Assembly (NCBI GenBank): GCA_041490825.1
Contig: JBGPTW010000004.1
Location: 31,902-95,901, forward strand
DNA length: 64,000 bases
Origin: Candidatus Methylomirabilia bacterium
Lineage (GTDB): Bacteria > Methylomirabilota > Methylomirabilia > Rokubacteriales > CSP1-6
Reading direction: 5' to 3'
Shown here: positions 1 through 25,700 of the stretch, in pieces
Numbering within the stretch: the stretch's first letter is position 1
How the letters are laid out: the number at the start of each line of letters is the position of its first letter
Notes under the pieces: generated by a model
What the model saw: the letters and a program-made list of their open reading frames with translations, nothing else
Told to the model about the DNA's origin: nothing
The model's database searches: none
Position numbers and translations under genes: made by a program

Positions 1-2
1 GC

Positions 3-155
3 GAGCTCCAGCGCAAGATCACGGAGCAGAGCGGCCAGCAGACGACATACCAGCGCAAGCACACGAACTTGCACTTCGAGGAGTTCGGACTCACGGAAGA
101 ACGCGTGCGTGAAGACCTGGCGTTCGTCTTCGACAAATACGGATTCGCGAGATGA
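3..155 (+). CDS. 3' end of an upstream CDS running off the left edge (frame 3, ends ...FVFDKYGFAR*). Function unknown.
   Basis: An open frame runs from the window edge to the TGA at 153-155. That stop overlaps the ATG of the next gene (ATGA), implying co-transcription. Confidence 0.35.
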   Translation, partial: ELQRKITEQSGQQTTYQRKHTNLHFEEFGLTEERVREDLAFVFDKYGFAR

Positions 156-712
156 ATCGGCACGACTCCAATCCCCGGCGAACGGCGGCCGTGCCGTCTC
201 CTTTCGGATGGATTCCGCTTCCGGTCCGGATGCTGTTCTATGCGGTGGGCTTCCTCGGGCTGGTGCTGGTCGCGCTGCCATGGCTCTTCCATCAGCTCGA
301 CGTATGGGTCCCGGCCGTACACGTCGAGATGGGTTGGTTTCGTATCGTCGGCGTCGTGCTGTTTGTCGTCAGTTTTTCCTTGTACTCGGCGGCCTCGTAC
401 GTCTTGACCCGGCGCGGGAAGGGCGCCTACGTGGAGTTCGACCCGCCCACAGAGCTGGTCGTGGTCGGGCCCTACCGATATGTCCGCAATCCGATCGTCG
501 CGTTTCTCCTCGGAAGCATGCTGGGCGAGGCGCTCAGCTTGTCCTCGACCGGTGTCCTGCTCATGTTCCTGGTCTTCCTGGTCTTGTCACATCTGCAGGT
601 GACGCGTCTGGAGGAACCGCTACTGCGCAAGCGGTTCGGCCGAGCGTATGACGAGTATCGCGCTCACGTGCCACGCTGGATGCCCCGGCTAACTCCATGG
701 AAGGCGCCGTGA
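152..712 (+). CDS. Isoprenylcysteine carboxyl methyltransferase (ICMT) / phospholipid methyltransferase family membrane protein.
   Basis: 186 aa, several TM helices. The C-terminal motif VVVGPYRYVRNPIVAF...EEPLLRKRFGRAYDEY is typical of the ICMT/PEMT family. Confidence 0.7.
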   Translation: MNRHDSNPRRTAAVPSPFGWIPLPVRMLFYAVGFLGLVLVALPWLFHQLDVWVPAVHVEMGWFRIVGVVLFVVSFSLYSAASYVLTRRGKGAYVEFDPPTELVVVGPYRYVRNPIVAFLLGSMLGEALSLSSTGVLLMFLVFLVLSHLQVTRLEEPLLRKRFGRAYDEYRAHVPRWMPRLTPWKAP

Positions 713-829
713 CGCCGGCCAGGCTCAGGGGCGATCGCATGCGGCTCCTCCTCCGCCTGGCCCTGCTCGGGCTCCTGCCCTCTCTGCCATCTATGAGAAC
801 GGATTCCCCTGTCAAGGCACTTCTGTTTA

Positions 830-1456
830 TCCTCTGCTCTCCTCTCGTCGTTGACGATGACTGCTCGTGATGTGCGCGCCGCTCGGGTGCCGTCGCAAGA
901 TTCCACTATCCATCTAATCGCGCACGCAGGCTCGGTGATGTGGCAGAACATCCGGTGCTCGATCTTATTCCATTTTGCTGGTGCCGGGCGGAAGGTGGCA
1001 CACGGAAATGCGCAGCCCCGTGTCGTGGGCGAGCCGTTGCAGTACCACCTTCCAGAGTCGGGCGCGGGCGCTGTTGCTCCCGCCGGCGTCCGCGGTGATG
1101 AGCAAGTCGGTCGCCGTCGGGTACCGCCGGCGGCCCATCTTCCGCCACCACTGCTGGATGGACTGGACGGCAAACTCGGGCGTGTCGTGATCCACGCCGA
1201 CACTGACCCAGCCGGTGTTCGCCCCGAGATCGTAGACCCCGTAGGGGATCGCCTTGCCGAGGGTCGGATCGACGAAGTCATGTACGCGTACGACCTCCGG
1301 TGCCCCGGCCGGGCGCCACTCTCGCCCCCCGTTCTTGAAGTCCCCGATCAGTTCCTTCTTCTTCGTGTCCACGGAAATGACCGGCTGCCGACGCCGATCG
1401 CCGCAACAGGACGCATCCACCGACAAAGTGCTCCGCACCGGACGAAAACATGACAA
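830..1456 (-). mobile_element. C-terminal fragment of an ISAzo13-like (IS630-related DDE) transposase. It is frameshifted and 5'-truncated, so a pseudogene.
   Basis: ORF 965..1456 reads ISVDTKKKELIGDFKNGGREW...ITADAGGSNSARARLWK...CHLPPGTSK. It continues in another frame (ORF 664..1281) as WNKIEHRMFCHITE. No N-terminal half is present. Confidence 0.65.
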
Positions 1457-1465
1457 TGTTGTTTC

Positions 1466-2716: not shown

Positions 2717-3415
2717 CTACGCCGTTGCCGCGGTCGCCCTTCTCTCGGCGGAGATCTGCCGGATCAGCCTGGTGAGGAGCAGGACGCCGCACACCCGCAT
2801 GAGGGGCATCAGCAAGAGAATGAGGAGGGCCGGGACCGAGCTCGTGGCGGCCAGCCAGTCGGATCGCGTCACGAGATTGAAGAAGAAGGAAAGGGCGAAG
2901 ATCCTCGGAAGCAGCCCCAGGAAGCTGCCGAGGAGATAGTCGGGCAGGCTGACGGCGGTGGCGCCGACGGCATAGTCGATGGCGGGAGCGAACGGAAACA
3001 CGAGCCGGAGTCCCATCGAAGGTAGCGGTCCTCGCCGCGACGCCAGCGTCCGAAACGCCGGGAGACGCCGTTCCAGGATCCGGCTGCCCAAGTCGCGCAG
3101 CACGTATCGCCCGATGAGGAACGCAAGCGCCGCGCCGGCCGTGATCCCGGCCATCGAATACAGGGCTCCGCCCAGGCGGCCGAAGGCCAGCCACCCGATC
3201 CACACGCTGATCGACGTGGGGGCGCACGCGACGACGCCCAAGGCCGTCAGCGCCAAGAACAACGGCGGCGCCGCGGCGCCCAGACCCTGGACGAAGGAAT
3301 TGACGCGCTCGGCCTGGACCTGCCAATCGACCGTCAGATTGATCGCCACGAGCACGGAACCGCCGAGGACCAGGGACACCAGCGCCCAAACGATCGAGCG
3401 CCGCGAGACCCGCAA
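2717..3415 (-). CDS. DedA / TVP38 / TMEM64 family membrane protein.
   Basis: 232 aa with multiple TM segments and a DedA-like core (LAFGRLGGALYSMAGITAGAALAFLIGRY). Confidence 0.65.
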   Translation of the reverse strand: MRVSRRSIVWALVSLVLGGSVLVAINLTVDWQVQAERVNSFVQGLGAAAPPLFLALTALGVVACAPTSISVWIGWLAFGRLGGALYSMAGITAGAALAFLIGRYVLRDLGSRILERRLPAFRTLASRRGPLPSMGLRLVFPFAPAIDYAVGATAVSLPDYLLGSFLGLLPRIFALSFFFNLVTRSDWLAATSSVPALLILLLMPLMRVCGVLLLTRLIRQISAERRATAATA

Positions 3416-3539: not shown

Positions 3540-4214
3540 CTAGGCGAGTCCCGGTTCGTAGCCGTGGTAGGTGAGCGCCGGCTGGAAGCGTCGCTGGAGC
3601 GTCGCTTCGACGCGCTTCAATTCCGGAAGAACGCCCGGTCGGCGAGGACGGATCCACGGCGCGTAGTCCACCGTGTGGAAGGGCGTTTCGCCGAGAAAGC
3701 GGAAGATCATCGCCATCTGGCCTTCGGGGTCCCGGCACAGATCCTCGTAGCGCAGTGAGATGTAGTCGCCATCGCGGAGCTCGGTGATGTGCCGGATATA
3801 GTAGCTCGCTCGTTGCGCGATCCGCCGGACCATCAGGCGCCGCCCCAGCTGCATGGGCGAGTCGGGCTTCAGCAGCCAGCGCATGAAGCCCGCAAACGCC
3901 CTGTTGCGCTGGAGCCGGACGTAGATTCGCGAGTGGAGCTGGTTGATCACGTTGTCTTCGCCCCAGTTCCGCCGCGTCATCTGCAGCATGGAATTGAGGG
4001 TGGAGAGCGGATGCCGGTGGATGAACACGAAGACACCTCGCTGGAGGAGATGATGCTCCTCCCAGGAGGTGGGCATGGGCAGACGCAAGAGAGACAGGAA
4101 GTCTCTAGCGAGCGCCGCGGCGTCGGCGAACGCTGACAACGGGCGCGAGCCGCCGTGCCTCGGACCGCAGCGTCTGGATCGAATCGTTCGCCACACCTCC
4201 TCGTGGAGGTACAA
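3540..4214 (-). pseudogene. Sulfotransferase family protein. The N-terminus including the PAPS 5'-PSB loop is missing. It is truncated where it meets an IS110 remnant.
   Basis: Sulfotransferase C-terminal signature (...ISLRYEDLCRDPEGQMAMIFRFLGE...). The frame is closed by TAA at 4263-4265 immediately upstream. The apparent start is TTG. Confidence 0.55.
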
Positions 4215-4341: not shown

Positions 4342-4594
4342 GGCTCGCTTCTCCTCTCTGCGGCGTTGACCGCGTGTATGCTCTTGTAGGGTACCCTATG
4401 CCACCACGTCGAGCGAGAAAGGCCAGCCGCTTCATCCCATCTATCGCCCCTCGAACGGAAGCGAGCCTGCGCAACGTGATGACCGCTAGCTGGAACGAAT
4501 AACGACAAAGGGAAGGATCACGAACATACCAAGACTGCTCGCCCCCGAAGAGAAGAAGGAGATCTATCCGCGCGACATCGGCCGTACGCCCCTC

Positions 4595-5452
4595 GTGATG
4601 AAGGACCTGGCGGGCTCGTGCGTCAACGTTCCCGGCGTGTGGCCCATGTGCGAAGCGCCGTACATGCTGGAGCAAGGGCTCGCCTCACCCTCCCGCCTCG
4701 ACCTGATCGCCAGACGCTTCATCCGCATGGGTCCCTGCAAGACGCTGGACACGATCGGGGTCCCGTTGTTCACGAGCATCGGCCGGAACACCATCGACGG
4801 GTTTGCCTTCGACCTCCGCGTCCCCGAGCTGTGCCATAAGCTGATCCGAGACGGCCGCCTCGGCAGGTCCGCCAACCAGGGCGTCTATCTGTATCGTGAC
4901 GACCGGCCGGTCGACGACGCGCCGGAATACTATCTGACGCAGACGCCGCCTCCCTCTGGCGTGCGCTCGGACGACGCGAGCGTGTCCGAGCGGCTGATGT
5001 TTTCGATCTACTTCGCGATCCTGAAGATCGCGAGCATGGGGCTGTCCAGTGTCGGCGACCTCTGCCTAGGGATCACCGATCTGCTCGGCCTGAAGACGGA
5101 CCCGCTGGAAGAGCTGAGAAAGCTGGGAAGCGCCGGCCTGCGGGACGAGTTCGACCGTCTGCGGGCCGAGCCGGGGCCCCGCTATGGACTGCCGCCCGCT
5201 GGCGTCGATCATGGCCAGCCTGGACGACCGGTGACGTACCGCTTCGTGATCGCGGCCGTCCTCAACTGGATGGTGGTGGGCGCGCTGTTCGCCGTCGGGA
5301 TCCGCTATCTGGCTTCGAAGCGGGTCATGATCTACCACCTCCAGATCCTGGACGTGGCCTGGACCGACCTGACGCCGCGAACCCGGATCCTGATGCTGAC
5401 CTTGATGAAGGGAACGGCCCAGATCGCCCCACCCATGAGCGGAGACCGGTGA
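4595..5452 (+). CDS. Hypothetical protein. The N-terminal ~90 aa resemble the C-terminal domain of 3-hydroxyacyl-CoA dehydrogenase (no NAD-binding domain), followed by an uncharacterised hydrophobic C-terminal part.
   Basis: MGPCKTLDTIGVP...LIRDGRLGRSANQGVYLYRD resembles the 3HCDH C-domain (MGPFxLxDxVGLD...GxKxGxGFYxY). Its stop overlaps the next start (GTGA at 5449-5452). Confidence 0.4.
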   Translation: MMKDLAGSCVNVPGVWPMCEAPYMLEQGLASPSRLDLIARRFIRMGPCKTLDTIGVPLFTSIGRNTIDGFAFDLRVPELCHKLIRDGRLGRSANQGVYLYRDDRPVDDAPEYYLTQTPPPSGVRSDDASVSERLMFSIYFAILKIASMGLSSVGDLCLGITDLLGLKTDPLEELRKLGSAGLRDEFDRLRAEPGPRYGLPPAGVDHGQPGRPVTYRFVIAAVLNWMVVGALFAVGIRYLASKRVMIYHLQILDVAWTDLTPRTRILMLTLMKGTAQIAPPMSGDR

Positions 5453-6795
5453 GCCAGCTCTGCAGCGCCGTGGTTCGCCGGGGCTTTCGCTGGCTCAGCC
5501 GCGGTCTGCTCGCCCTGAGCCGGCTCCTGTACAAGCTGGAGATCGAAGGCGGGGAGAACCTCCCCGCGACGGGCCCGGTCATCCTCACCTGCCGGCACAA
5601 CTCGGGCTTGGACATCATCTTCTTCGCGGCGTTGGGCTTCATGACGGGTGAAGTGCCCCTTGCCGTGACGGGCGTCATCACCGTGAACCGCTTCCGGGCG
5701 TGGTTGGGCCGGAATCTTGGATTGGTTCCCTTGTTCCGGGAACAAGGCCTGTCGGCCGCTTCCCTCATGAGCCTGCACAAGAAATTGCGGCAGGGGGGTA
5801 TGGTCTTCATCGCCGACAACGAGATCCCCTGGGACGGCCGCCTCCGGACGCCCCGCTCCGGGGTCGCTTGGTGCGCCTTGCGCACTCATGCCCCGGTCGT
5901 CGTGGCGGTGCTCAATGGGGGCTACCGGATCGCTCCGCGCTGGGCCCAGCGGATTCCCCTGCGCGGAAAGCTGGCGCTGCGCATCGGGAAGCCGTTCCAT
6001 CTCTCCGACGCTCCGTGCGACCGAGTGACCAATGAGATGTTGCAGGCGGCCAACCGGCGTTTCGTCGACGAGATGCTGGCGCTTTCCGACCCCGCGCTGG
6101 TCAGCGAGGAGCACCCCAGATGCAAGGGCATCCCGAGCCTCCTGTGGCAATGCCCGATCTGTCACGAGGACGAGGCCCTCTACCACCGGACGCCCTGGTC
6201 CAAGCCCGCGGAGGTCCAGTGCCGCCACTGTGGGACCGGCTGGGTCGTGGAGCGGTTCCGGGACGATGATTATCACCTGAAGGTCGTGCAGGGAAACCCG
6301 ACGACGCTCGGCCAGGAGCGCTCGTTGGCCGCCTGGTACGACGTCATGAAGGCCGGGTTACGGCTGGTGCCGCAGGAAGACCCGGCGGTGGCTCTGGACG
6401 CCGGTGAAGAGCTCTACCTCCGCAGCCGGGAGGCGTGGCTGGAGGTAGAGGCGGACAATCCGCTTTTCCGCCACTGGGACGGCGAGGACGCTCCGCGGGA
6501 GCAGGCGAGCAACCTCGGCCCGAGCCTCATGACGCGCTGGGATCGCGGGCGGCTGTTCTTGACGAGCGAGCGGTTCATCTGGGTGGGCCGTCGCGGCCGG
6601 CTGAACTTTCCGCTCACCAAGCTGCACTCCACCCACCTCCAGACCATCCTGTTCTTCGGCTTCCTGTACGGAGTGCGCCGGTACCGCTTCAGCTTTCGAG
6701 GGGATAGCCTGCTGAGATGGCTGACGTACACCGCGCTGGTCGCGCAACGCGTCGAGCAGATCCACGGCCATCGCATCAGCACGACCAACTACTGA
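5449..6795 (+). CDS. Lysophospholipid / 1-acyl-glycerol-3-phosphate acyltransferase (PlsC/LPLAT family) with a ~250 aa C-terminal extension containing a CxxC...CxxC zinc ribbon.
   Basis: HxxxxD acyltransferase motif (CRHNSGLD), FIADNEIPWDGRL and PVVVAVLNGGYRIAP blocks. C-terminal extension has CPICHEDE...CRHCGTGW. Confidence 0.75.
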   Translation: MSQLCSAVVRRGFRWLSRGLLALSRLLYKLEIEGGENLPATGPVILTCRHNSGLDIIFFAALGFMTGEVPLAVTGVITVNRFRAWLGRNLGLVPLFREQGLSAASLMSLHKKLRQGGMVFIADNEIPWDGRLRTPRSGVAWCALRTHAPVVVAVLNGGYRIAPRWAQRIPLRGKLALRIGKPFHLSDAPCDRVTNEMLQAANRRFVDEMLALSDPALVSEEHPRCKGIPSLLWQCPICHEDEALYHRTPWSKPAEVQCRHCGTGWVVERFRDDDYHLKVVQGNPTTLGQERSLAAWYDVMKAGLRLVPQEDPAVALDAGEELYLRSREAWLEVEADNPLFRHWDGEDAPREQASNLGPSLMTRWDRGRLFLTSERFIWVGRRGRLNFPLTKLHSTHLQTILFFGFLYGVRRYRFSFRGDSLLRWLTYTALVAQRVEQIHGHRISTTNY

Positions 6796-6893: not shown

Positions 6894-8237
6894 TCAGTCT
6901 GGCGACGAACGGGTCCCCGCCAGGGCAGACGACATGGTCGACTCCGGAGGGATCTGATACCGCTCCGTGTACCAGGAGAATTTGTCGTCGATCATCTGGC
7001 GATCGAGCCCGAAGAGCTCCAAATTGTACCGGTGTTCGCCGTGCTTGTGCTGGGGATGCGCTTTCAGCCACGCCGTTGCCCGCGCTTCGAACTCGGGGGT
7101 GTAGGGGTAGCCGAAGTGCGCGTACAGGCGCTGCACCGCTCCGAGCGGATCCGCGACCAGCTCCTGGTAACGCATATCGTAGATACGGCCTGGCTCGGCG
7201 TGCGCTCGCGCCGCCTCGACGCGCCGCAGCGCCTCCGCGACCCAACTGATCACCACCGGCCCCACGGCGCCGCGCCGTGCCGGGTCTTCGGTCATCGAAT
7301 CATCCGTCATCAGATGATGGATGACACCCAGGAAGCTACACATTGATCCAATGGCACGGGACGGGTCGCGGTGAATCAGGACGATGGCCGCATCCGGGAA
7401 GACCGTCAGCAGCGCCTCGATCGCGTACGAGTGGATCGGCGCCTTCAACAACCAGTGCCCGTCGTGGGGCCGCCGCCAGTGGAGAAGTTGCAATTGCTCA
7501 CGGTACTCGCAGTAGGCTGCCTCGAAGACCTTGGCGGGCTGTCGCAGAAACCAATCGCGATATATCGGAGATACCTGCGCTGCAAGAACAAACGTGTTCA
7601 GCAGGAGCAAAACGCATTCTTCCGGCCCCTCCGGGTCAAGGTCGTGGATCTTGCGCAACCCGGGAGCCATGAACGTGAGCACTTTGGCGAAACGCTGGGC
7701 GTGTTTGATCCGCGGATCGCGGCCCCGGTCGATGTCCGCGGGACGCCGCGCTGGCATCATCGTTTCCCAGGCCAGGAGCGGACGGGCATGCGGATCCTGC
7801 GCCAGCAGCTTGTGCAGGAAGGTCGTTCCCGTGCGTGCCAAGCTGGCAATGAAGATCGGTCGTCGAATCGATACGCACAAAATCTCAGGGTGTCGCTTCA
7901 ACTCGTTCGTGATCAGGAGGCGGTTCACCAATGCGCTGAATATTTTGCGCCGTATCGTGAGACGGGCGAAGCACTTGAGCCCGCTCTCTTCGTTATGTGA
8001 TTGGATGAGCGTTCGCAGCGGGATCCGAAATCCGTCACCACCGAAATCCGAGAGACCGGTTTTCCGCTGGGCGGCACGCAGCAGGCTTTCTTCAGAAAGC
8101 CGGTCAATCGGAGCTCCGAGCGCCCGAAGCGCCCCTCCCGCGGCGTTCAGAAGCGTGACGATTCCAGAAACCAGCGCCGGCAACTGGGAACGCCCCGCTC
8201 GCTGTGGATGGCTCATGACGGTGGGTGGCGGGCACAA
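6894..8237 (-). CDS. Sulfotransferase (Sulfotransfer_3-like, PAPS-dependent).
   Basis: The 5'-PSB loop LARTGTTFLHKLLAQDP is present, and the C-terminal region is sulfotransferase-like. Confidence 0.75.
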   Translation of the reverse strand: MCPPPTVMSHPQRAGRSQLPALVSGIVTLLNAAGGALRALGAPIDRLSEESLLRAAQRKTGLSDFGGDGFRIPLRTLIQSHNEESGLKCFARLTIRRKIFSALVNRLLITNELKRHPEILCVSIRRPIFIASLARTGTTFLHKLLAQDPHARPLLAWETMMPARRPADIDRGRDPRIKHAQRFAKVLTFMAPGLRKIHDLDPEGPEECVLLLLNTFVLAAQVSPIYRDWFLRQPAKVFEAAYCEYREQLQLLHWRRPHDGHWLLKAPIHSYAIEALLTVFPDAAIVLIHRDPSRAIGSMCSFLGVIHHLMTDDSMTEDPARRGAVGPVVISWVAEALRRVEAARAHAEPGRIYDMRYQELVADPLGAVQRLYAHFGYPYTPEFEARATAWLKAHPQHKHGEHRYNLELFGLDRQMIDDKFSWYTERYQIPPESTMSSALAGTRSSPD

Positions 8238-11478: not shown

Positions 11479-11525
11479 GAAAAAGCAGATAGGGGAGTGA
11501 GCTTCGTCGCTCGCTTCGGCCCGCG

Positions 11526-13332: not shown

Positions 13333-13366
13333 GAAGTCCTCCTTGTTCGAGCAGCGTTGATGTCGT

Positions 13367-15804: not shown

Positions 15805-15947
15805 CTATCACCTCAGTGTGCTGCGGGCGATCCGGCGTCACTAGGGTCAGGTCCTGCGCTCTCGACAGGCCGGGGATTATGCTGCAGCGTACTGCCCTTT
15901 GCACCTCGAAACGTCCTGTACCGACGGTCGGTGGCCATGGTTTGCCG

Positions 15948-17194: not shown

Positions 17195-17195
17195 G

Positions 17196-18425
17196 TCAGA
17201 GCTTCCTGAAAATGAGGCAGGCGTTAGCGCCACCCAAGCCGGCGTTAAACGACATGACCGTCCTCAGCGGCTGGACCAGCGGCGAGCGAACATGACGTAC
17301 ACCTTCGCAGTCCGGGGCCACGTGTTCCAGGTTCGCGGTTGGAATCACGAAACCGTGCTGCAGCATCAACAGGGTGAAGATCGCCTCGTGGGCGCCGGCC
17401 GCCCCCTGGGAATGGCCATTCAGCGGCTTGGTTGAGCTGACGAGGGGGGATGGGTCGCCGAAGACTTCTCGGATGACCTGGATCTCCACGGCATCGCCGC
17501 TTTTGGTGCCGGCCCCGTGCGGGTTGATGTAGTCGATTTCGACCGGCCCGTGCGTTTCTGCGGCGACACTCAGCGCCTGCCTGATCGCCCGGGTCAATCC
17601 GCCCACCTTCGGCTCGTACATGGAATCGCCGTTGTTGGCTGACCCGTACCCGATCATCTCGGCCACAATGGGCGCCCCGCGCCGCTCGGCCCCCTCGAGC
17701 GATTCGAGGAGGAGAATCCCGGCGCCGTCGGAGGCGACCATTCCTTGTCGGTCACGGTCATACGGGCGGCATGCCCGTTCCGGATGGGCGTCCACATTGG
17801 GCGGCATGACGCCGGAGGCCCCGTGAGTCGCCCAGGCGTTTCCCACACCGGGCGCCTCGGTCCCTCCACAGATGCACAAGTCGACGACCCCGTGGCGGAC
17901 CAGCTCGAACCCATGCCCGATACTGTCGGTCCCGGTGGTGCACGCCGTGGACACCGAGTAGCAGCGTCCCTTCACGCCGAGCCACGCGGCGAGGTTCAGC
18001 GTGGCGGTCGAATTCATCATGCGCACAATCGGTGCCGTCCCGATGCGCACCGGGCTCTTGTGGGCAAGAAGCGTGCGCTCGGCGGCCGCGGCCTCGTTGG
18101 GATCGCCTCCACCAGATCCCACGACGACGCCGGCTCTCGTGCTCCGCAACATCTCGAGCGGCAAACGCGCGTCCTGCAGGGCCTCGAGAGCTGCGACTGC
18201 CGCATACCTGGCGGTCGCGGACATCGTCTGAAGTTGCTTCTTGCCGATCCCGTTGGTGACCAGCCCCGCGACCAGGCCGGCCACGGGATGCTTGTAGCCC
18301 AGCTCCTGCATCTCGGGCACGACCCGCACCCCCGAGATCCCTTCCTGCAAACATCGCCACACCTCGGCCTTGTTGTTGCCCAGGCACGAAACGATCCCCA
18401 TCCCCGTCACGGCGACGCGTCTCAC
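17196..18425 (-). CDS. Beta-ketoacyl-ACP synthase I/II, copy 1.
   Basis: MRRVAVTGMGIVS start. Motifs VSTACTTG, NPHGAGT, GHSQGAAG. Confidence 0.8.
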   Translation of the reverse strand: MRRVAVTGMGIVSCLGNNKAEVWRCLQEGISGVRVVPEMQELGYKHPVAGLVAGLVTNGIGKKQLQTMSATARYAAVAALEALQDARLPLEMLRSTRAGVVVGSGGGDPNEAAAAERTLLAHKSPVRIGTAPIVRMMNSTATLNLAAWLGVKGRCYSVSTACTTGTDSIGHGFELVRHGVVDLCICGGTEAPGVGNAWATHGASGVMPPNVDAHPERACRPYDRDRQGMVASDGAGILLLESLEGAERRGAPIVAEMIGYGSANNGDSMYEPKVGGLTRAIRQALSVAAETHGPVEIDYINPHGAGTKSGDAVEIQVIREVFGDPSPLVSSTKPLNGHSQGAAGAHEAIFTLLMLQHGFVIPTANLEHVAPDCEGVRHVRSPLVQPLRTVMSFNAGLGGANACLIFRKL

Positions 18426-18435
18426 CTCGAGTTCC

Positions 18436-19170
18436 TCACATTAAGAGCCCGCCGTTGACGCGAATCACCTGCCCGGTGATGTAGGCTGCGTCGTCTGAGG
18501 CGAGAAAAGAAACCACTTGGGCGACCTCCTCAGGCCGGCCGACCCGCCCCATCGGGATTCTCTTCTCCAGCTCCGCCACAGGGAGGCTTCGGATCGCCTC
18601 GGTATCGATGAACCCCGGAGAGACCGCGTTGACGGTCAGCCCCGTGGAAGCCAGCTCGCGAGCGGCCGCCTTGGTAAAGCCGACAACGCCGGCCTTCGCC
18701 GCGGCATAGTTCGTCTGTCCGAGATTTCCCGTCTCTCCGACGAGGCTCGTGATGTTGATGATCCGCCGTCCCGGCCGTCGCCGACCCGCCATCGACATTA
18801 CTACCGCCTTCGTGCAGTAATACACACCGTTCAAGTCCGTGTCGATGACCGCGCGCCAAGCGTCGTGAGGCATCCGCATGAGAAGGTGATCGCGAATCGT
18901 GGCGGCGTTGTTGACGAGGACCTGGACGGGGCCCTCCGTGCGTGCGATGTTTTTCACCGCCGCCTCGACTTCCTCGGACTTCGAGACGTCGAAGCCGAGC
19001 AACACGGCTTGGCCGTTCTCGCCGACGATCAGGTTGCGCGTCTCTTCCGCCTCCTCCACACGCGTATGGTAATGGACCACGACCGCGAAGCCATCGCGCG
19101 CGAGCTGGAGCGCCACGGCTCTCCCGATCCCACGCGAGGCGCCGGTGACGATAGCGACCGGCTTATCCAT
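18436..19170 (-). CDS. fabG: 3-oxoacyl-ACP reductase FabG (canonical N-S-Y-K).
   Basis: [20 protein letters not shown] and NYAAAKAG motifs. Confidence 0.85.
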   Translation of the reverse strand: MDKPVAIVTGASRGIGRAVALQLARDGFAVVVHYHTRVEEAEETRNLIVGENGQAVLLGFDVSKSEEVEAAVKNIARTEGPVQVLVNNAATIRDHLLMRMPHDAWRAVIDTDLNGVYYCTKAVVMSMAGRRRPGRRIINITSLVGETGNLGQTNYAAAKAGVVGFTKAAARELASTGLTVNAVSPGFIDTEAIRSLPVAELEKRIPMGRVGRPEEVAQVVSFLASDDAAYITGQVIRVNGGLLM

Positions 19171-19585
19171 GGCTCACCTCGCCGTCAGCGAGACGGCGCC
19201 CGGCGAGGATCTTGCTCGTGTACGTCAAGATCTCCTCGTCCCGCTGGTTTTTCATGGAATGCGTCATCGCGATGAGACCGCGGCTCCGATCGACCTGGGT
19301 CGTCTGGGCCACCTCCGCTTCCACGTGGACCGTATCGCCGACCTTCGCACGAGACGCGAATCGCACCCGCTCGAGGCCCCAGAGGGCGATGGTGGATCGA
19401 GGGATCCCCCGATCGCCCGCAAGGAACATCAGGCCGCCGCTGATGACCAGGGGGCAGAGGTCGTGGGCGAGCGAGTGCCCGGCCAGCGCCTCGAACACCA
19501 CGAGGTCGGTTTCCGTGATCGTTCGTGCCGGGGTGAGCACACGGTCGCCGACGTGGAAATCCTCGAAGTAAGCCTGTTCGCTCAT
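19163..19585 (-). CDS. MaoC-like dehydratase (hot-dog fold), copy 1.
   Basis: 140 aa. YFEDFHVGDRV...TETDLV is MaoC-like. It overlaps the fabG start by 8 bp. Confidence 0.7.
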   Translation of the reverse strand: MSEQAYFEDFHVGDRVLTPARTITETDLVVFEALAGHSLAHDLCPLVISGGLMFLAGDRGIPRSTIALWGLERVRFASRAKVGDTVHVEAEVAQTTQVDRSRGLIAMTHSMKNQRDEEILTYTSKILAGRRLADGEVSHG

Positions 19586-19601
19586 TCGCGGGTGTTCGCG
19601 C

Positions 19602-20633
19602 TCATTCCGGAACTAGTACCAACTTCCCGAACGCCTCGCGCTGCTCCAGCAGCTGATGGGCGCGTCGGGCCTCCTTCAACGGCAGGACCCGGTCCAACAC
19701 AGGCTTCAGCTTCCCGTCGTTGACCATCTGGCTGATCGGAAACATCCAGGCCTTGCTTCCCGTCGTCGCGCCCAGGATCTTGAGATTCCGGAAGAAGACG
19801 TGGCGCAGGTCCGTCTTCGGAAGATACCCGGACGTGGCCCCGCACGTGACGAGCCGCCCGCCCACCGTCAGGCAGAGCAGGCTCCGCTCCCACACGTCCT
19901 CGCCGATGTGCTCGACCACCACGTCCACGCCCCGCTTCTTCGTGATCCGGCGCACCTCGTGCAGGAAATCGTGGGTTTTGTAGTTGATCCCGTAGTGCGC
20001 CCCCAAGGCCTTGGCCTTCTCGACTTTCTCGTCGCTCCCCGCCGTCGTGATGATGTTCGCGCCCACCATCCGGGCCAGCTGGATCGCTGCGCTGCCGACG
20101 CCGCTTCCCCCCGCGTGGATCAACACCCACTCCCCCGGCTCGAGCTTGGCCTTCGCGAAGATCATGTTCCAGGCGGTCCCAAAGGCCGCCGGAAGACAGG
20201 CGGCGATCTCGAAGGGCGTCTCGTCGCGAAGGGCAACCATGTTCTGAGCGGGCACCCTCACGAACTGCGCGTAGCCTCCGGGCAGGTGCTCCCCGATCAG
20301 CTGATAGCCGGGGCAGAGGTTGTCCCACCCCGACAGGCAGCGCTCGCACCGACCGCAGCTCACTCCGGGAGCGACGACCACCCGAGTCCCGGGGGCTAGC
20401 GCCTTGGTATTGGGACCGATGGCGGCTACCTCGCCGGCGATATCCACCCCGGGGATGAACGGGAAGTGAACCTTGAGGAACGGAAGGCCCTTGCGCATCC
20501 ACAGGTCCACTTGGTTGACCCCGCACGCCCGGACTCGGACAAGGACTTCGCCCTCGGCCGGCGCGGGATCCGGCAGGTCGCCGTAGGTCAGGACGTCGAT
20601 TCCGCCATGCTCGTTCAGGTAGACGGCCTTCAT
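19602..20633 (-). CDS. Zn-dependent medium-chain dehydrogenase/reductase (quinone oxidoreductase / enoyl reductase-like), tandem paralog A.
   Basis: 343 aa MDR fold: structural-zinc motif GCGRCERC and GGSGVGSAAIQLA NAD(P)-binding loop. Confidence 0.8.
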   Translation of the reverse strand: MKAVYLNEHGGIDVLTYGDLPDPAPAEGEVLVRVRACGVNQVDLWMRKGLPFLKVHFPFIPGVDIAGEVAAIGPNTKALAPGTRVVVAPGVSCGRCERCLSGWDNLCPGYQLIGEHLPGGYAQFVRVPAQNMVALRDETPFEIAACLPAAFGTAWNMIFAKAKLEPGEWVLIHAGGSGVGSAAIQLARMVGANIITTAGSDEKVEKAKALGAHYGINYKTHDFLHEVRRITKKRGVDVVVEHIGEDVWERSLLCLTVGGRLVTCGATSGYLPKTDLRHVFFRNLKILGATTGSKAWMFPISQMVNDGKLKPVLDRVLPLKEARRAHQLLEQREAFGKLVLVPE

Positions 20634-21664
20634 GCACTCCCCTCAGGGACCAGAACGAGCTTCCCGAACTGCTGACGTCCTTCCAGGAGTCGGTGGGCCT
20701 CCCGAGCTTCCCGCAGCGGCAACACCCGATCTAATACCGGGTGCAGCTTTCCCTCCTGCACGAGGCGAACAATCCGAAACAGGATTGACCGGCTCCCGGT
20801 CGTCACGCCCATGACCTGGAGATTCCGGAAGAACACGTGGCGAAGGTTGATCTTCGGCAGATAACCGGAACTGGCCCCGCACGTGACGAGGCGTCCGCCC
20901 GTGGCCAGACAGAGCAGACTGCGCTCCCACACGTCCTCGCCGATGTGCTCGATGACCACGTCCACGCCGCGCTTCTTCGTGATGCGGCGGACCTCGTGGA
21001 GGAAATCGTGAGTCTTGTAGTTGATGCCGTGGTGGGCTCCGAGAGCCTTGGCTTTTTCCACTTTCTCGTCGGTGCCGGCGGTAGTGATGACGTTGGCGCC
21101 GACCATTCGCGCGAGCTGGATGGCGGCGCTCCCGACACCGCTTCCCCCCGCGTGGACCAGGACCCACTCGCCCGACTCGAGTTTCGCTTTCTCGAAGACC
21201 ATGTTCCATGTCGTAATGAACACCGCCGGGAGGCAGGCTGCGGTGACGAAGGGAAGATCGGGCGGAAGCGGGACGACGTTCTGAACCGGGACTTTCACGT
21301 ACTGAGCGTAGCCGCCCGGAATGTTCTTGCCGATCAACCGATAGCTGGCACAGAGGTTATCCCGGCCAGAGAGGCAGTGTCGGCACCGACTGCAGCCGAG
21401 GCCGGGGTTGATGACCACCCGCGTGCCGGCCGCCGGCGCGTCCGCCGAGCCGGCAGCGACCACATCACCGGCGATGTCCTGACCGAGCGTGAACGGAAAG
21501 GGAACCCGCAGCATCGGCAACCCCTCGCGGACCCACCGATCAGCGTGGTTCAGACCGCACGCGGCAACCCGAACCACGACCTCGCCTGGTCCGGGCGTGG
21601 GATCCGGTAACTCACCATAGGTGAGCTTGTCGATACCACCGTGCTCTGTGAAGTAGACCGCCTT
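20630..21664 (-). CDS. Zn-dependent MDR oxidoreductase, tandem paralog B.
   Basis: Starts MKAVYFTEHGG. Its C-terminal half is about 90% identical at nucleotide level to paralog A. The 4-bp overlap with paralog A suggests co-transcription. Confidence 0.8.
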   Translation of the reverse strand, partial: KAVYFTEHGGIDKLTYGELPDPTPGPGEVVVRVAACGLNHADRWVREGLPMLRVPFPFTLGQDIAGDVVAAGSADAPAAGTRVVINPGLGCSRCRHCLSGRDNLCASYRLIGKNIPGGYAQYVKVPVQNVVPLPPDLPFVTAACLPAVFITTWNMVFEKAKLESGEWVLVHAGGSGVGSAAIQLARMVGANVITTAGTDEKVEKAKALGAHHGINYKTHDFLHEVRRITKKRGVDVVIEHIGEDVWERSLLCLATGGRLVTCGASSGYLPKINLRHVFFRNLQVMGVTTGSRSILFRIVRLVQEGKLHPVLDRVLPLREAREAHRLLEGRQQFGKLVLVPEGSA

Positions 21665-21803
21665 CATGCGGCGGTGGACAGGCGCGCCAAGCGTCGCACC
21701 CGATGATTGTACTCGCCCTGCACGATCTTTGCTGAGGATCCGCTCCCCGCGACCGACGCTCTTCGTCGCAATACCGGGACCCAAACAACCCTTGATGGAA
21801 CTG

Positions 21804-22220
21804 CTACACGCCCGGCGTCCCGGCGGGCTTGCCGAAGACGCGCCGGCCGCCGATTACGAGGGCGGCCAGGAAAACCGCGATGAGCAGTGCGCCGACGATC
21901 GTCTTTCCGCCGAGCAGCGCCTCGCCCGGATCGCGGGTCGCGATCGCCTCGGCGAAGAACACGGTCGCGGCGATTCCGGGGATGACGCCGAGCGCGGTGC
22001 CCGCGACGTAGTGGTGGACGCGCACCCCGGTGGCACCGATCGCCCAGTTGAGCGGCGGAGCAAGAAAGAGGACGAAGCGGAGGATGAGCATAGTCAGAAA
22101 GCCGTGGCGATCGAGCCGTTCGTCGAGTGCGCGCAGGCCAGCGAACCGGGTGGTCAGCGCGCGCTGGAACGCGTCGCGCAAGACCCAGCGTGCGAGGAGG
22201 AACGTCGACGTGGTGCCCAC
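21804..22220 (-). CDS. DedA/TVP38-family membrane protein, probably a C-terminal fragment or N-terminally frameshifted.
   Basis: 138 aa with the family's conserved region (GTALGVIPGIAATVFFAEAIA). Too short for a full DedA (~200+ aa), and an IS fragment lies upstream. Confidence 0.4.
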   Translation of the reverse strand: MGTTSTFLLARWVLRDAFQRALTTRFAGLRALDERLDRHGFLTMLILRFVLFLAPPLNWAIGATGVRVHHYVAGTALGVIPGIAATVFFAEAIATRDPGEALLGGKTIVGALLIAVFLAALVIGGRRVFGKPAGTPGV

Positions 22221-22491
22221 GACCGAAGCGATCCAGCCGTAGGCGAAGGCGTGCGGCCAGTCGAAGAGCAGGCCACCGAGGGCGATGAGTACGATCCCGG
22301 GAAGATGGAGGAAGATGCCCGCGATGCAGACACTGATGAAGACGAGCGGGCCGTAGGGAGCTTGCGCGTCGACCAGCGCGCGAATTCCCTCGAGCGTCAG
22401 GTGGCTCTCTGAGTCGAAGCGCTGGTGGGCCCAGACGCCGGCGGCGACCAGCGGAGCCTGTCAATAGGAATGAGACAGTCGGTTATCGAGT

Positions 22492-22947
22492 TTAGTGAGC
22501 GAGCGCCATCTCCTCGAGCGCGCGGGGCTTGGGGGGATTGATCCAGACCTCGGTGGGCACCGCGGCCGGCATCGGACGGCCCGCCGGGAACCGCTCCGGA
22601 TGCGCCGCGTACGCCGTGGTGAGCACTGCGGCGCGCTCGGCCACGCGCTGCGCGGCCAAGCCGACATGCACGTCGTGGGGCGTGAGCAGCCCGAGGCCGC
22701 TGTGGTGATGTGCGGTGTTGTACTTATGCGGGTGATCCGAGATCACCACGCATAAGCCACTGATCATGCGGGTGATAGGATCACCCGCATATCGGGACCA
22801 GGGGAAGAAGACCTGCCCGTGGGCCCGAGCGTCTTGGATCGAGCCGAACCGTTCCGGGAACGCCGGCCGGTACTTCAGCGTCTTGAACTGCGTCTCCGAG
22901 AACGGGTTGTCGTTGGACACGTGGGGCCGCGAATGCGTCTTGATCAC
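22492..22947 (-). mobile_element. DDE integrase core-domain C-terminal fragment (IS3/IS481-like transposase remnant) interrupted by a ~75-bp palindromic insertion.
   Basis: RPHVSNDNPFSETQFKTLKYRPAFPERF...HHSGLGLLTPHDVHVG...HPERF is an rve-domain C-terminus. No N-terminal part is present. Confidence 0.65.
22730..22795. repeat. Two tandem hairpins sharing the stem ATGCGGGTGATC (MITE/REP-like palindromic insertion).
   Basis: ttatgcgggtgatc-cga-gatcaccacgcataa, followed by atgcgggtgat-agg-atcacccgcat. Adds about 25 codons (RYAGDPITRMISGLCVVISDHPHKYNTA) to the integrase frame. Confidence 0.45.
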
Positions 22948-23030
22948 GCCGAGATCGGCCAGTAGGAGCCGATGCCGCTGATCAGAACGGAGCCCTTCTC
23001 GCTGCCGCTCATGGGACCTCCTTGGCGACT

Positions 23031-24809
23031 CTAGGGGGCGAACGCTCGGACCGGTTTTGCGGCTTCATAGTGTGCGGTCTCGCCAATCGGTGGTGGCGAG
23101 GTCTTGCGAAGACGTCCGTCTTCCCAGAGCAGAAAATGGTAGGACGGATCGTCGAGGTCATGGGGCAGTTCCAGGCGAACCCGACGGATGCCCTCCGCGT
23201 CGATCTCCAGCACCGTGGCCTTGAGGGCGGCCGTCTCGAAGACCGTTCCCACCGCGGGCGGAGTCACCGTGCTCCGGAACAGGCGCTCATACCGGTGCGC
23301 GAGCAACGCCGGGGGTCCGTAGCTCATGACCACCGTGCGTTCGCCGTCCCGGCGCCACCCCCACGGGCGCCGCGCCATCTGCAGGGAGTAGAACGACACT
23401 CCGGGGTCGTCGTGAAGAACCGTCCACGTGGGCAGGATGGTGAGCGCCAGGACGGTAGAAGGGGGATTGAGCAAGAAGACGTGCCGCGCACCGTGTTTTT
23501 CACGGGGGATTTCCGCCCGGGCAATGACGTCTCTGTCCGTCGCCGCCATATCATAAAACCAGTTGCCCCGGATCCACGTCATCGGGAGCGACATCACCGG
23601 ACCGCAGCAGAGCAACAAACCAACCAGTGCGTATCGCCCGACGCGGTACGGGCCTGGAATGTCGGAGCCCGACCGCAAACTCGCGATCAGCAAACCCAGC
23701 AGAAGAGCCGATCCCAGGGTCGCGTCCATGAGCAGACGATCGGAGGTGGTCACCCCGGCCGCCGGAGCCAGCGCGATTAGCATCCAGCCGGCGGCGTATC
23801 CCGCCAACCGTTGCGTACGCAACCGTCGCCAGGTGAACCAGGCGAGAAGGCCCAGCAACGGGAACATGGCCCACGCCAGGGGGCTCGCCCAGGACGGTTT
23901 CATGAACACGAGATCGGTCGAGACGCCGAAGAAGAGGCTCGCCCCAGCGAGGGGGACGAAGGTGGCGAGGCGGCTCACGAATGCACCCCACGAGTGCCAC
24001 GGGGTCGAGTAGAGCGCCGAGTTCGTCCCGTGACCGGTGAGGACGTAGCCGGCCACGTACAACGCCGTCGCCGCGACGAACACCCACATGACTCCGAAGC
24101 CGAGCACCCGCCGGAAGGACCGGATGAGGGTCTCGTTCCCGGGGAGCCGGTCTAGCAGCCATACGTACAACCCCACGAGGCCGACCGTGATGAGGGCTGT
24201 TTCCTTCGCGCCGCAGGCCAAGAGAAAGGAGGCGACCGCTCCGGCCAGGGCCCACCGGCTTCGTGTGCGGCAGTGCCAATCGACGCTCAACAAGGTGGCG
24301 ACGATGAACAGGTTGGCGAGCACCGTGTTGCGATTGGCGATCCACCCGACGGGCACGACGTGGATGTCGTCCAGCGCCAGAAAAGCCAGCGCCCAGAGCG
24401 CCGCCGCCGGTGAGGCGCCGAGCCGTCGGTACAACAGATAACTCAGCGAGAGCAGGACGCCGAACAAGAGGATGTTGGTGAGGTGATAGCCCGGCGCCCA
24501 GCCACGGTACATCAGATAGTCCGAGAGGAGGCTCAGGCTCGCCACCGGCCGGAAGAAGCGCACGCGAAAGTCCTCGGACGTCCACCAGGGATAGAGACCC
24601 AGCTTTCCGAGCGCCGCGCCGGGCTGGGGTCGGACGCCGTAGTCGTACAGATTCAGCGGCGAGACCTCCGGGATGGCGTCTCCGTAGCGAAACACCGCCT
24701 GGTGGATGAAGTCGTCCCACAGGAAGCCCCAGCCGAGGCTCGGGAGGTGCAACAGCATCCCGCACCCAACCAGCACACTCGCCCACAACCAGGACCTGGT
24801 TCGGCTCAT
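23031..24809 (-). CDS. Large polytopic membrane protein, GT-C-like glycosyltransferase (ArnT/PMT-like) with a C-terminal soluble domain.
   Basis: About 592 aa from MSRTRSWLW (ATG at 24809). It has 10+ predicted TM helices and then a ~170 aa hydrophilic C-terminus. The assignment rests on architecture only. Confidence 0.4.
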   Translation of the reverse strand: MSRTRSWLWASVLVGCGMLLHLPSLGWGFLWDDFIHQAVFRYGDAIPEVSPLNLYDYGVRPQPGAALGKLGLYPWWTSEDFRVRFFRPVASLSLLSDYLMYRGWAPGYHLTNILLFGVLLSLSYLLYRRLGASPAAALWALAFLALDDIHVVPVGWIANRNTVLANLFIVATLLSVDWHCRTRSRWALAGAVASFLLACGAKETALITVGLVGLYVWLLDRLPGNETLIRSFRRVLGFGVMWVFVAATALYVAGYVLTGHGTNSALYSTPWHSWGAFVSRLATFVPLAGASLFFGVSTDLVFMKPSWASPLAWAMFPLLGLLAWFTWRRLRTQRLAGYAAGWMLIALAPAAGVTTSDRLLMDATLGSALLLGLLIASLRSGSDIPGPYRVGRYALVGLLLCCGPVMSLPMTWIRGNWFYDMAATDRDVIARAEIPREKHGARHVFLLNPPSTVLALTILPTWTVLHDDPGVSFYSLQMARRPWGWRRDGERTVVMSYGPPALLAHRYERLFRSTVTPPAVGTVFETAALKATVLEIDAEGIRRVRLELPHDLDDPSYHFLLWEDGRLRKTSPPPIGETAHYEAAKPVRAFAP

Positions 24810-24901
24810 CGCTTTTCCGGTTTTGGACACACCTGCGTCGCGCCGCGCGACCTGAATCGACCTCAGATGGCTGATCGTTCTCGATTCGAGGTAACACATA
24901 A

Positions 24902-25320
24902 TAGGCTCGTCTCCCGAAAGTGTCACGGGAGTGGGAGGCCCGCGCAGCAGTGGTAGATGTTCGCGATGTACGTCCACGTCGTCCGATAGCCGTACGCCCG
25001 ATGGCTGATGACCTTGACCTTGTTGTTCCTGCCTTCGAGCGCGCCGTTGCTGACACGGAGCTTCGTCCAGACCAACACGCCGTCGAGATGGGCGCGCAGC
25101 AGCCGGGCGAGTTTCTTGAACGGCTCCAGACGGCTGTGGCTGGCGCGCCAGACCCACTGCAGGAGACGCCCGCCCGGCCACGCGATGCTGCGGTAGGTCC
25201 AGAAGCGGCGGAGATCTTCTTTGAGGACGTACGCCTTGACGATCGCGCTGCTGAGGCGCAGCAGGGCCGACAACCGGATGTGCTCGTCCTGAGCGAGATT
25301 CTCCGGATTCTTCAACCATC
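24902..25320 (-). mobile_element. ISL3-family transposase 3'-terminal remnant (copy 2, frame intact over about 130 codons) with terminal inverted repeat.
   Basis: ORF 24923..25315 reads ...LKEDLRRFWTY...VSNGALEGRNNKVKVISHRAYGYRTTWTYIANIYHCCAGLPLP. The IS end at 24902-24929 is the reverse complement of 11451-11478. Confidence 0.8.
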
Positions 25321-25700
25321 TTGACTATCTCGACGAGGTCGTCGGCACCGTGAGTGCTCAGATCGACGAGGTCATCGTGCCGTTCGCTGAGGCGGTGGAG
25401 CGCCTGGACACCATCCCTGGCGTGAATAAGCGAACCGCCCAAGCGGTGATCGCAGAGATTGGCGTGTACATGAGCGTGTTTCCCAGCGACCGTCATCTGG
25501 CGAGCTGGGCCGGTCTGTAACAGCCGAGCAGCAGATCATTGTCGACTACGCGGTGTACGCCAAGCGCCCCCGCGCTGTCGGCCACGGGCTCACCGGCCAG
25601 ACCTGCGAAGAGCGCAAGCAGATCGGTCATGACGGGGAAAGGTCGATTTGCTCCTGTGGGCGATCACGATGATCCCGGCTGCTGGAGCCTGGTGGTATCC
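25321..25700 (+). mobile_element. IS110-family transposase C-terminal remnant (Transposase_20 region), frameshifted.
   Basis: Reads DEVVGTVSAQIDEVIVPFAEAVERLDTIPGVNKRTAQAVIAEIGVYMSVFPSDRHLASWAGL then a stop. Weak continuation in another frame. Confidence 0.55.

Follow-up and report, generated by a model that had tools for sequence, protein, structure and literature searches.

The first ~25 kb of a 64,000-nucleotide stretch of DNA from a Candidatus Methylomirabilia bacterium (contig JBGPTW010000004.1, positions 31,902 to 95,901; hereafter the window, numbered from its first letter) hold a gene cluster that brings together 3'-phosphoadenosine-5'-phosphosulfate (PAPS) sulfotransferases, a PapA-like acyltransferase, a duplicated type-II fatty-acid synthase (FAS-II) set and a membrane protein with a GT-C fold. 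The core of this gene set recurs in relatives, and we give an even chance to its being a specialised-lipid cluster of the Rokubacteria lineage, which, to judge from its sequence, would build a sulfated, fatty-acylated envelope lipid or glycolipid.

The G+C content of the window (64-69%) makes raw lists of open reading frames (ORFs) noisy; genes were called from codon-position G+C, cross-checked with the gene calls of the public contig, and annotated by Pfam, NCBIfam and PDB searches together with structure prediction. An Rfam scan of the entire window gave no match. The gene inventory of an earlier note, compiled from the letters of the same DNA, proved correct almost one for one, with all the listed gene types in place, although it overlooked five insertion sequence (IS) fragments in the first ~25 kb, an inverted repeat formed by two of them, the composite origin of the ORF at 4595-5452 and the lipid genes to the left of the window. 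The note had also judged the host probably not an actinomycete, in agreement with the UvrB protein of the window, which is 86-88% identical to the UvrB of many 'Candidatus Rokuibacteriota'/Methylomirabilota metagenome-assembled genomes (MAGs). In addition, two TolC-like proteins (outer-membrane proteins) and MacB-type exporters are encoded in the window, indicating a diderm host. A planctomycete origin, considered because of a 'Rhodopirellula transposase', extracytoplasmic function (ECF) matches and the names of GT-C homologs, was rejected by the UvrB search.

Sulfotransferases, acyltransferases and acyl supply

The earlier note had counted two or three PAPS-type sulfotransferases, one of them truncated, and the region indeed comprises (i) ST440 (6894-8216, reverse strand), an intact Stf-type PAPS sulfotransferase that matches Sulfotransfer_3 with 132 bits against a cutoff of 27, bearing the PAPS loop RTGTTFL and the 3'-phosphate motif RDPS...S; (ii) an ST340-class pseudogene (3540-4088, reverse), of which only residues 155-340 of 340 are left, the PAPS-binding loop being lost; and (iii) ST338, cut by the window start so that only the last 50 residues of the 338-residue PAPS-type sulfotransferase remain (1-152, forward). 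The full-length ST338 gene, seen in contig L085, which covers the 10 kb to the left of the window, displays a Pfam Sulfotransfer_1/3 match and the motif RRSGTTFL, and it ends in an overlap with the start of the gene that follows, encoding a methyltransferase of the ICMT/PEMT family. The sulfotransferases of the window match only Sulfotransfer_3/_1/_4 in Pfam. The best PDB matches of ST440 are 2ZQ5 and 2Z6V (E 6e-50), which the search lists as uncharacterised mycobacterial proteins and which we take to be Stf1 and Stf9, whereas PDB searches with the ST340 and ST338 classes, and with the ST361 class found in related clusters, return remote sulfotransferase matches only.

Beside the sulfotransferases, as the earlier note had proposed, lies the gene of a CysQ-type 3'-phosphoadenosine-5'-phosphate (PAP) phosphatase (12146-12910, forward), of the mycobacterial type, with the PAP phosphatase 5DJF as PDB match (E 6e-71). 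CysQ is also its best NCBIfam model, with a score below cutoff, and a 76% identical ortholog occurs in the related contig L081. The adjoining gene (11526-12062, reverse) encodes a small secreted protein of no known family, and a 54% ortholog of it likewise adjoins CysQ in L089.

ST440 belongs to a tight operon (6.9-10.9 kb), described as such in the earlier note, in which all intergenic gaps or overlaps are of 26 nt or less. The other members, all on the reverse strand, are (i) a PapA-like stand-alone condensation-fold acyltransferase (9499-10950); (ii) ACP1, a dedicated acyl carrier protein (ACP) with a DSM motif (9244-9492; 84% ortholog in contig L084); and (iii) a FabH-like β-ketoacyl-ACP synthase III (KAS III) with the residues Cys-His-Asn (8243-9247; NF006829, 255 against a cutoff of 249; 90% ortholog in L084). 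The PapA-like protein displays a two-lobed condensation fold nearest to that of PapA5, as seen in an AlphaFold2 model (pLDDT 80.6) for which Foldseek ranks 1Q9J (PapA5) first (E 1.8e-18, TM-scores 0.62/0.75), and in a comparison of the family profile with the PDB, where PapA5 is again the best solved relative (1Q9J, E 1.5e-6). The Pfam PapA_C score, 24.9 bits, stays under the gathering cutoff of 30. Compared to the canonical HHxxxDG motif, the sequence DHRAGDG keeps H163, D167 and G168, conserved across the family, with the first histidine replaced. Its genomic context, an adjoining ACP with either KAS III or an acyl-AMP ligase, suggests a putative O-acyltransferase that takes the acyl group from a carrier. 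The family counts 645 cluster representatives at E<=1e-30 among 1.84 billion, with ~5 in the sub-clade of the window, a distribution at odds with a housekeeping locus.

The lysophospholipid acyltransferase (LPLAT) listed in the earlier note is also present, as a PlsC-type Pfam match at 5449-6795 (forward) in which the HxxxxD motif reads HNSGLD. This protein carries a 250-residue C-terminal extension with a CxxC...CxxC zinc-ribbon-like segment that matches no family, and shares no homology with the short LPLAT-like proteins adjoining the GT-C gene in L089 and L092.

The FAS-II set (13078-21667, reverse) comprises an ACP, three ketosynthases (KS), two ketoreductases (KR), two MaoC-type hotdog proteins and two enoyl reductases (ER) of the medium-chain dehydrogenase/reductase (MDR) family. 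The genes follow one another as ACP2 (13078-13332; Pfam), the overlapping KSa (13367-14593) and KSb (14590-15804), KR1 (15948-16709), a MaoC-type dehydratase (16706-17194; Pfam, as KR1), KSc (17196-18425), KR2 (18436-19170), a second hotdog protein (19163-19585), and finally ER1 and ER2 (19602-21667), of which ER2 has a 78% ortholog at the end of contig L084. The set is internally duplicated, as revealed by the identities between KSa and KSc (57%), KR1 and KR2 (47%), the MaoC-type dehydratase and the second hotdog protein (42%), and ER1 and ER2 (73%); KSb shares 38% identity with each of KSa and KSc. The Cys-His-His residues are present in all three KS proteins, which score best to the FabB/FabF models of NCBIfam, under their cutoffs. 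With its KS, KR, dehydratase, ER and ACP genes, the set fits the private FAS-II with its own ACP that the earlier note had called complete, except that it lacks a malonyl transferase: neither a FabD transacylase nor a FabZ/FabA dehydratase nor a FabI/K/L/V reductase is found in the set, the last two being represented by the MaoC-type and MDR-family proteins. An ordinary housekeeping FAS-II was rejected on these domain types, and an aryl-polyene cluster because the window has no FabA/ApeI-like dehydratases, LolA-like protein, MMPL exporter or ammonia lyase; ApeI-like dehydratases occur only beside a distant GT-C homolog in contig L099.

The mycobacterial FAS-II system (KasA/KasB, MabA, HadAB/BC, InhA, AcpM) shares with this set the stand-alone KS pair, the ketoreductases of the short-chain dehydrogenase/reductase (SDR) family, the private ACP, and dehydratases of the MaoC-type hotdog fold, not of the FabZ/FabA type. 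The GDxxxxH-like motif is present in only one of the two MaoC-type dehydratases, a pairing that recalls, at the level of sequence, the HadAB heterodimer and might reflect a similar arrangement. On the other hand, the enoyl reductases of the cluster are MDR (zinc-ADH-like) proteins and not SDRs of the InhA type, and the set is duplicated.

Membrane proteins and the envelope

The GT-C-like membrane protein reported in the earlier note (592 residues; 23031-24809, reverse) has no Pfam family, and its predicted structure (pLDDT 92.8) supports a confident GT-C fold. All 21 fold matches at E<=0.001 are GT-C enzymes (TM-score ~0.4), including STT3, AglB, PglB, ArnT, AftA, DPY19 and Pmt4/PMT. Emb also occurs among the fold matches, and STT3, PglB and ArnT match better than Aft/Emb. 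At the sequence level, the protein finds no match in Pfam, NCBIfam or the PDB, and thus falls outside the described families PMT, PMT_2, STT3, ArnT and Emb; PF13231 is recognised in just one of 112 homologs. Two aspartates near the N terminus, D32 and D33, are invariant in 45 sequences and would be located in the first outer loop. The family is small, with ~110 members among 5.8 billion proteins.

The UbiA/DPPR-synthase-like prenyltransferase of the earlier note (1466-2374, forward) is a UbiA-family polyprenyl-phosphate phosphoribosyltransferase, scoring 249.6 against the NF008977 cutoff of 234 and displaying the Asp-rich motif NDVADRERD, as expected for a decaprenyl-phosphate phosphoribosyltransferase of the UbiA Rv3806c type. 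Enzymes of this type make a polyprenyl-phosphate-pentose donor for use by a GT-C enzyme, and not a prenylated product, so the 'prenylated' lipid considered in the note is unlikely. The mycobacterial decaprenyl-phosphate-ribose/arabinose route comprises UbiA Rv3806c, DprE1/DprE2 and the Aft/Emb GT-C arabinosyltransferases. The cluster shares with it a UbiA protein above cutoff and a GT-C protein with AftA/Emb among its fold matches, but it differs in that related clusters lack UbiA or keep only a remnant of it and no DprE1/DprE2-type gene is detected: a DprE1-type gene or FAD-oxidase is missing among the Pfam matches of the region, and the SDRs of the related clusters are generic in NCBIfam, none of DprE2 type.

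The remaining membrane genes also agree with the earlier annotation. The ICMT-type methyltransferase (152-712, forward) matches PF04191 with 49 bits over a cutoff of 25 and, in NCBIfam, weakly matches isoprenylcysteine methyltransferase and LmtA, an enzyme that methylates the phosphate of lipid A; a 57% ortholog is translationally coupled to the GT-C gene in L084. Two DedA (VTT-domain) proteins were recognised by Pfam, one complete (2717-3415, reverse; 84% ortholog in L084) and one reduced to a 138-residue fragment without its N terminus (21804-22220, reverse). The absence of MmpL was likewise correctly noted, as none of the scanned ORFs has an MMPL match or sufficient size, the only true ORF above 700 residues being a ribonucleotide reductase.

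Taken together, these membrane genes invite the alternative that the cluster modifies an envelope polymer, placing a sulfated or acylated sugar on lipid A/lipopolysaccharide, another glycan or a protein in the manner of ArnT, with no free sulfolipid formed; the sulfation would then take place on a polyprenyl-phosphate-linked sugar before flipping. We consider it quite improbable. ArnT, PglB and AftA are among the fold matches of the GT-C protein, DedA and a polyprenyl-phosphate phosphoribosyltransferase are present, the ICMT-type enzyme weakly resembles LmtA, a PlsC-type acyltransferase is part of the cluster, and the most widely conserved neighbour of the GT-C gene encodes a cytoplasmic sulfotransferase, all consistent with such a role. 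However, a carrier-dependent PapA-like enzyme, KAS III or acyl-AMP ligase modules and a private type-II synthase would be unneeded, and Pfam scans of the region disclose no Lpx, Arn or O-antigen genes. The comparison with ArnT-type, DedA-dependent lipid A modification is similarly divided: the GT-C fold, a DedA neighbour and presumably a polyprenyl-phosphate-linked donor are common to both, whereas the cluster has neither ArnA, ArnB, ArnC and ArnD nor a Pfam PMT/ArnT match, and contains sulfotransferases and carrier-protein acyl modules instead.

Conserved linkage and rearrangement

At least six independent metagenome contigs link the PapA-like gene, an Stf-like sulfotransferase, GT-C, SDRs, CysQ and an acyl-supply module. 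A metagenome contig scan with the single PapA-like protein gave no confirmed match, whereas its alignment-based repeat yielded six short contigs. A compact version, in L081/L089/L090 (two NCBI MAGs; ~17 kb in L089/L090), displays the order ST440-PapA | ACP-SDR-acyl-AMP ligase-GT-C-ST361-SDR | ST340 | CysQ-small protein, with the first two blocks divergent. L084 follows a second arrangement, ER | ST340 | UbiA remnant | DedA | GT-C-PEMT | ST364-SDR-PapA-ACP-KAS III. Four short JGI contigs add (i) PapA-(KAS III remnant)-ST440 in L093; (ii) ST-SDR-GT-C divergent from PapA in L094; (iii) PapA adjoining ligase-SDR-ACP in L095; and (iv) dehydrogenase-membrane protein-sulfotransferase fragments-PapA in L098. 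ST440 itself has a 76% ortholog beside the PapA-like gene in L081/L089 and a 40% homolog in the same position in L039. The recurrent core thus comprises the PapA-like gene, ST440, GT-C, SDRs, further sulfotransferases, CysQ and an acyl-carrier module, and its repetition on independent contigs means that the cluster is real, although rare, and not a chance assembly of genes. The synteny that the earlier note had proposed to look for, PapA-ACP-FabH-sulfotransferase, is kept in relatives as a linkage with an interchangeable acyl-supply part: the FAS-II set with KAS III is a variable module, replaced in close relatives by acyl-AMP ligase, SDR and ACP. In NCBIfam, the SDRs, ligase and ST340-class proteins of the related clusters have generic matches or none.

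More distant homologs extend this picture. GT-C homologs at 70% and 50% identity (L091 and L092) carry an ST340-class sulfotransferase directly downstream, accompanied by SDR, PlsC-type/LPLAT-like acyltransferase and DedA genes; a 44% homolog (L099) closes an operon of the order dehydratase (DH)-ACP-DH-KS-KS-acyltransferase; and a 28% homolog in Polyangium is without lipid-related neighbours. PapA-like homologs at 47-49% identity adjoin GT1 glycosyltransferases, sugar O-methyltransferases, an SDR-ligase fusion and a type I polyketide synthase. Through these contexts the GT-C family is connected with dedicated lipid synthesis and with sulfation, and the PapA-like family with the acylation of glycosylated lipids. 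In the wider PapA-like family, clustering of the neighbours of 79 loci returns mostly paralogs, ATP-binding cassette (ABC) ATPases, SDRs and regulators. In Syntrophomonadaceae and related MAGs (L045, L052, L055, L061, L063, L079), up to six PapA-like paralogs stand in tandem near an ICMT/PEMT-like membrane protein, which echoes the PEMT linkage in Rokubacteria; the six copies are ~70% identical to one another and so count as one lineage, a weak support. PapA-like homologs at 25-31% identity are also encoded in Heimdallarchaeota MAGs (L016, L017, L018), so the family crosses the divide between bacteria and archaea.

The order of genes in the window deviates from that of its relatives, and the deviation coincides with IS remnants. 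They include (i) a transposase fragment (965-1456, reverse) covering positions 86-226 of 308 of the DDE_Tnp_ISAZ013 profile, at which the related contig L086 ends; (ii) an ISL3-transposase fragment (10993-11781, forward); (iii) an integrase (rve_3) fragment recognised by Pfam (22492-22947, reverse); and (iv) a second ISL3 fragment (24923-25315, reverse), adjoined by a Transposase_20 fragment. Between them, the two ISL3 fragments carry inverted copies of a 310-nt repeat (96-100% identity), with the left arm (11168-11478) inside the first fragment and the right arm at 24903-25216, bracketing a segment of 13.4 kb (11479-24902) that contains CysQ, the entire FAS-II set and GT-C. In L094, 358 nt separate the N-terminal end of GT-C from that of the PapA-like gene, which it faces; the counterparts of these ends in the window border the two repeat arms instead. 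Flipping 11479-24902 back restores the GT-C/PapA order of the relatives, which indicates an IS-mediated inversion; the sequence points to recombination between the inverted ISL3 copies as the event that parted GT-C from the PapA operon, and misassembly at the 310-nt repeats may be an alternative cause of the inverted order.

This history bears on the possibility that the locus is a mosaic, two or three unrelated systems set side by side through IS activity, namely an unusual fatty-acid synthase, a PapA/sulfotransferase small-molecule pathway and a GT-C/UbiA/DedA envelope-glycosylation system. The five IS fragments and the IS-bounded inversion are what such a mosaic would leave; L089/L090 lack the FAS-II set, KAS III and UbiA within 10 kb, and GT-C has no PapA-like gene nearby in L091, L092, L099 or L100. 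Yet the PapA-like gene and GT-C are adjacent or a few kb apart on at least three independent contigs (L084, L089/L090, L094), CysQ, ER and the dehydrogenase recur with both of them, and undoing the inversion sets GT-C beside the PapA operon, as in the relatives, so that we regard a mosaic as unlikely.

The present copy also bears signs of decay. In addition to the ST340-class pseudogene, which represents the sulfotransferase class most widely conserved beside GT-C and whose full-length orthologs lie directly downstream of GT-C in L091 and L092, and the truncated DedA, a remnant at 4571-5428 (forward) joins in frame residues 169-379 of a 3-hydroxyacyl-CoA dehydrogenase and the N-terminal 66 residues of a small membrane protein; each part has an intact paralogous gene 7-8 kb to the left of the window. 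With ST340, one DedA and the dehydrogenase gene reduced to remnants, this copy of the pathway may have changed or lost part of its activity. Taken to its end, this argument would make the cluster a decaying, non-functional relic with no product or a truncated one, compatible with any ancestral function. The loss of the PAPS-binding half of ST340, the remnants of DedA and of the dehydrogenase/membrane-protein pair, the replacement of the native region upstream of GT-C by an IS fragment and the lack of any detected ST361/364-class ortholog in the window or its 10-kb left flank fit such a state. Nevertheless, most genes preserve intact frames, catalytic motifs and normal codon bias, including ST440, ST338, the PapA-like gene, the ACPs, KAS III, all KS, KR and ER genes, CysQ, UbiA, PEMT and GT-C, and the same sequence was recovered in several samples, including a JGI soil-metagenome contig and an NCBI contig of 101 kb; a relic is accordingly a decidedly doubtful explanation.

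Proposed pathway and its implications

The sulfolipid-1 (SL-1) pathway of Mycobacterium tuberculosis, which comprises Stf0, PapA2, PapA1, Pks2/FadD23, MmpL8, Chp1/Sap and CysQ, had been named in the earlier note as the nearest characterised analogue. The Stf enzymes and the role of CysQ are described in PMC3141025. The analogy holds for the enzyme logic: both systems combine PAPS sulfotransferase(s), a stand-alone condensation-fold acyltransferase taking carrier-bound acyl groups and a dedicated acyl-chain synthase, and in the Rokubacteria cluster the sulfotransferase is of Stf type, CysQ is very close to the 5DJF PAP phosphatase and the acyltransferase has PapA5 as its top fold match. However, the cluster falls outside the SL-1 system. 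A trehalose 2-sulfotransferase of the Stf0 type is missing, and in its place are Sulfotransfer_3 proteins, with 2ZQ5/2Z6V as the nearest solved structures; three to five sulfotransferase classes occur in the Rokubacteria clusters compared to one in SL-1; and MmpL8 is missing, whereas GT-C, DedA, the DPPR-synthase-like UbiA and the ICMT-type methyltransferase are added, in a diderm host of a different phylum. The acyl chain would come from a type-II synthase with KAS III or from an acyl-AMP ligase, in place of the type I Pks2 with FadD23. The claim of the earlier note that FabH and a type-II FAS replace Pks2 is therefore right for the window, where the Pks2 model scores 64-105 bits against a cutoff of 2400 and only stand-alone KS, KR, DH and ER genes are present, but does not extend to the relatives that carry the acyl-AMP ligase instead. 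Literature searches for the gene combination and for sulfated planctomycete or Rokubacteria lipids, within the searchable library, returned nothing relevant.

From the enzyme families present we infer the order of steps, the acceptor and the GT-C donor of a pathway to the sulfated, acylated envelope lipid as follows. The duplicated FAS-II set would make a dedicated acyl chain, and KAS III with ACP1 would prime or extend the carrier-bound acyl group, a task performed in relatives by an acyl-AMP ligase and ACP. The PapA-like enzyme could then move the acyl group from its carrier to a hydroxyl of a sugar or polyol, as PapA enzymes do, with the LPLAT adding a further acyl group. Several different PAPS sulfotransferases would O-sulfate the molecule in the cytoplasm, CysQ clearing the inhibitory by-product PAP. 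The UbiA protein is predicted to produce a polyprenyl-phosphate-pentose, and the GT-C enzyme may transfer a sugar from such a lipid-linked donor at the outer face of the inner membrane, the polyprenyl phosphate being probably recycled by DedA. Finally, the ICMT-type enzyme might methylate a carboxyl or phosphate group.

Several observations weigh against this scheme. The window ORFs scanned include no cytoplasmic glycosyltransferase and no PAPS-synthesis genes, so that no gene points to a particular acceptor, and an arabinose-type donor is unsupported for lack of DprE1/DprE2-type genes. UbiA, the FAS-II set, KAS III, the LPLAT and PEMT are each absent from some related clusters and might contribute to more than one product. 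Of the 79 loci of the wider family, which spans many phyla, just one has an ST440 homolog near its PapA-like gene, and the 47-49% PapA-like relatives keep company with GT1 and sugar methyltransferase genes. The pseudogenes and IS scars, moreover, suggest decay in this genome. The novel sulfolipid or sulfoglycolipid pathway announced in the earlier note nonetheless stands insofar as the gene content is best explained by a sulfated acyl (glyco)lipid, which may be either a free sulfolipid or a sulfated envelope glycoconjugate.

A bolder version, which we hold as somewhat unlikely, is that the cluster represents a new class, a multiply sulfated, acylated envelope glycolipid in which cytoplasmic sulfation and PapA-type acylation are coupled to an undescribed GT-C family, with three to five Stf-like sulfotransferases assisted by CysQ and a GT-C enzyme that uses a polyprenyl-phosphate-linked, possibly already sulfated sugar.

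The genes around the cluster are of mixed character. On the left, contig L085 (1-8635) carries a phosphopantetheinyl transferase, an ACP, a KS, an intact 3-hydroxyacyl-CoA dehydrogenase and a 144-residue membrane protein, then an opposite-strand block with a polyketide-cyclase-like protein, a fumarylacetoacetate (FAA)-hydrolase, a glyoxalase-fold protein and a FAD-monooxygenase, followed by ST338-PEMT. With these lipid genes left of coordinate 1, the cluster may extend leftwards. Directly to the right lies an ECF sigma factor gene (25664-26263, reverse), an anti-sigma-like zf-HC2 protein being among the gene calls of the contig, and then a set encoding an HlyD-like adaptor, a MacB/FtsX permease, an ABC ATPase, a signal peptidase and a TolC-like protein (26250-32622, reverse), a possible lipid exporter whose position could also be coincidence. 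A similar MacB-type exporter is encoded 6 kb from the distant GT-C homolog of L099, and a second efflux set of the TolC-like/HlyD/MacB kind, whose adaptor contains a heavy-metal-resistance-like domain, occupies 45703-50890. Further along the window are an HNH endonuclease gene (37044-37583) that adjoins uvrB and, by stop-to-stop coordinates, overlaps the upstream end of the uvrB frame; a protein of the AurF-like di-iron N-oxygenase family (55289-56329; PF11583, 68 bits); and two ORFs with good codon bias and no Pfam match (41191-42933, 580 residues; 58199-59254, 351 residues).

The locus provides a testable context for three families without a function: the PapA-like 'NRPS (nonribosomal peptide synthetase) condensation-like' proteins, the 590-residue GT-C family and the ST340 class; the compact relative cluster of L089/L090 is a candidate for heterologous expression. 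Detailed knowledge of sulfated lipids built by PapA and Stf-type enzymes comes essentially from mycobacteria alone, whose cell surface these lipids shape. The occurrence of the same enzyme logic in an uncultured soil phylum, accompanied by a new GT-C family, DedA and a polyprenyl-phosphate-pentose synthase, suggests that this chemistry may be broader; if the new-class reading is true, the cluster would take SL-1-like chemistry beyond Actinobacteria for the first time and show a GT-C enzyme in a new role.

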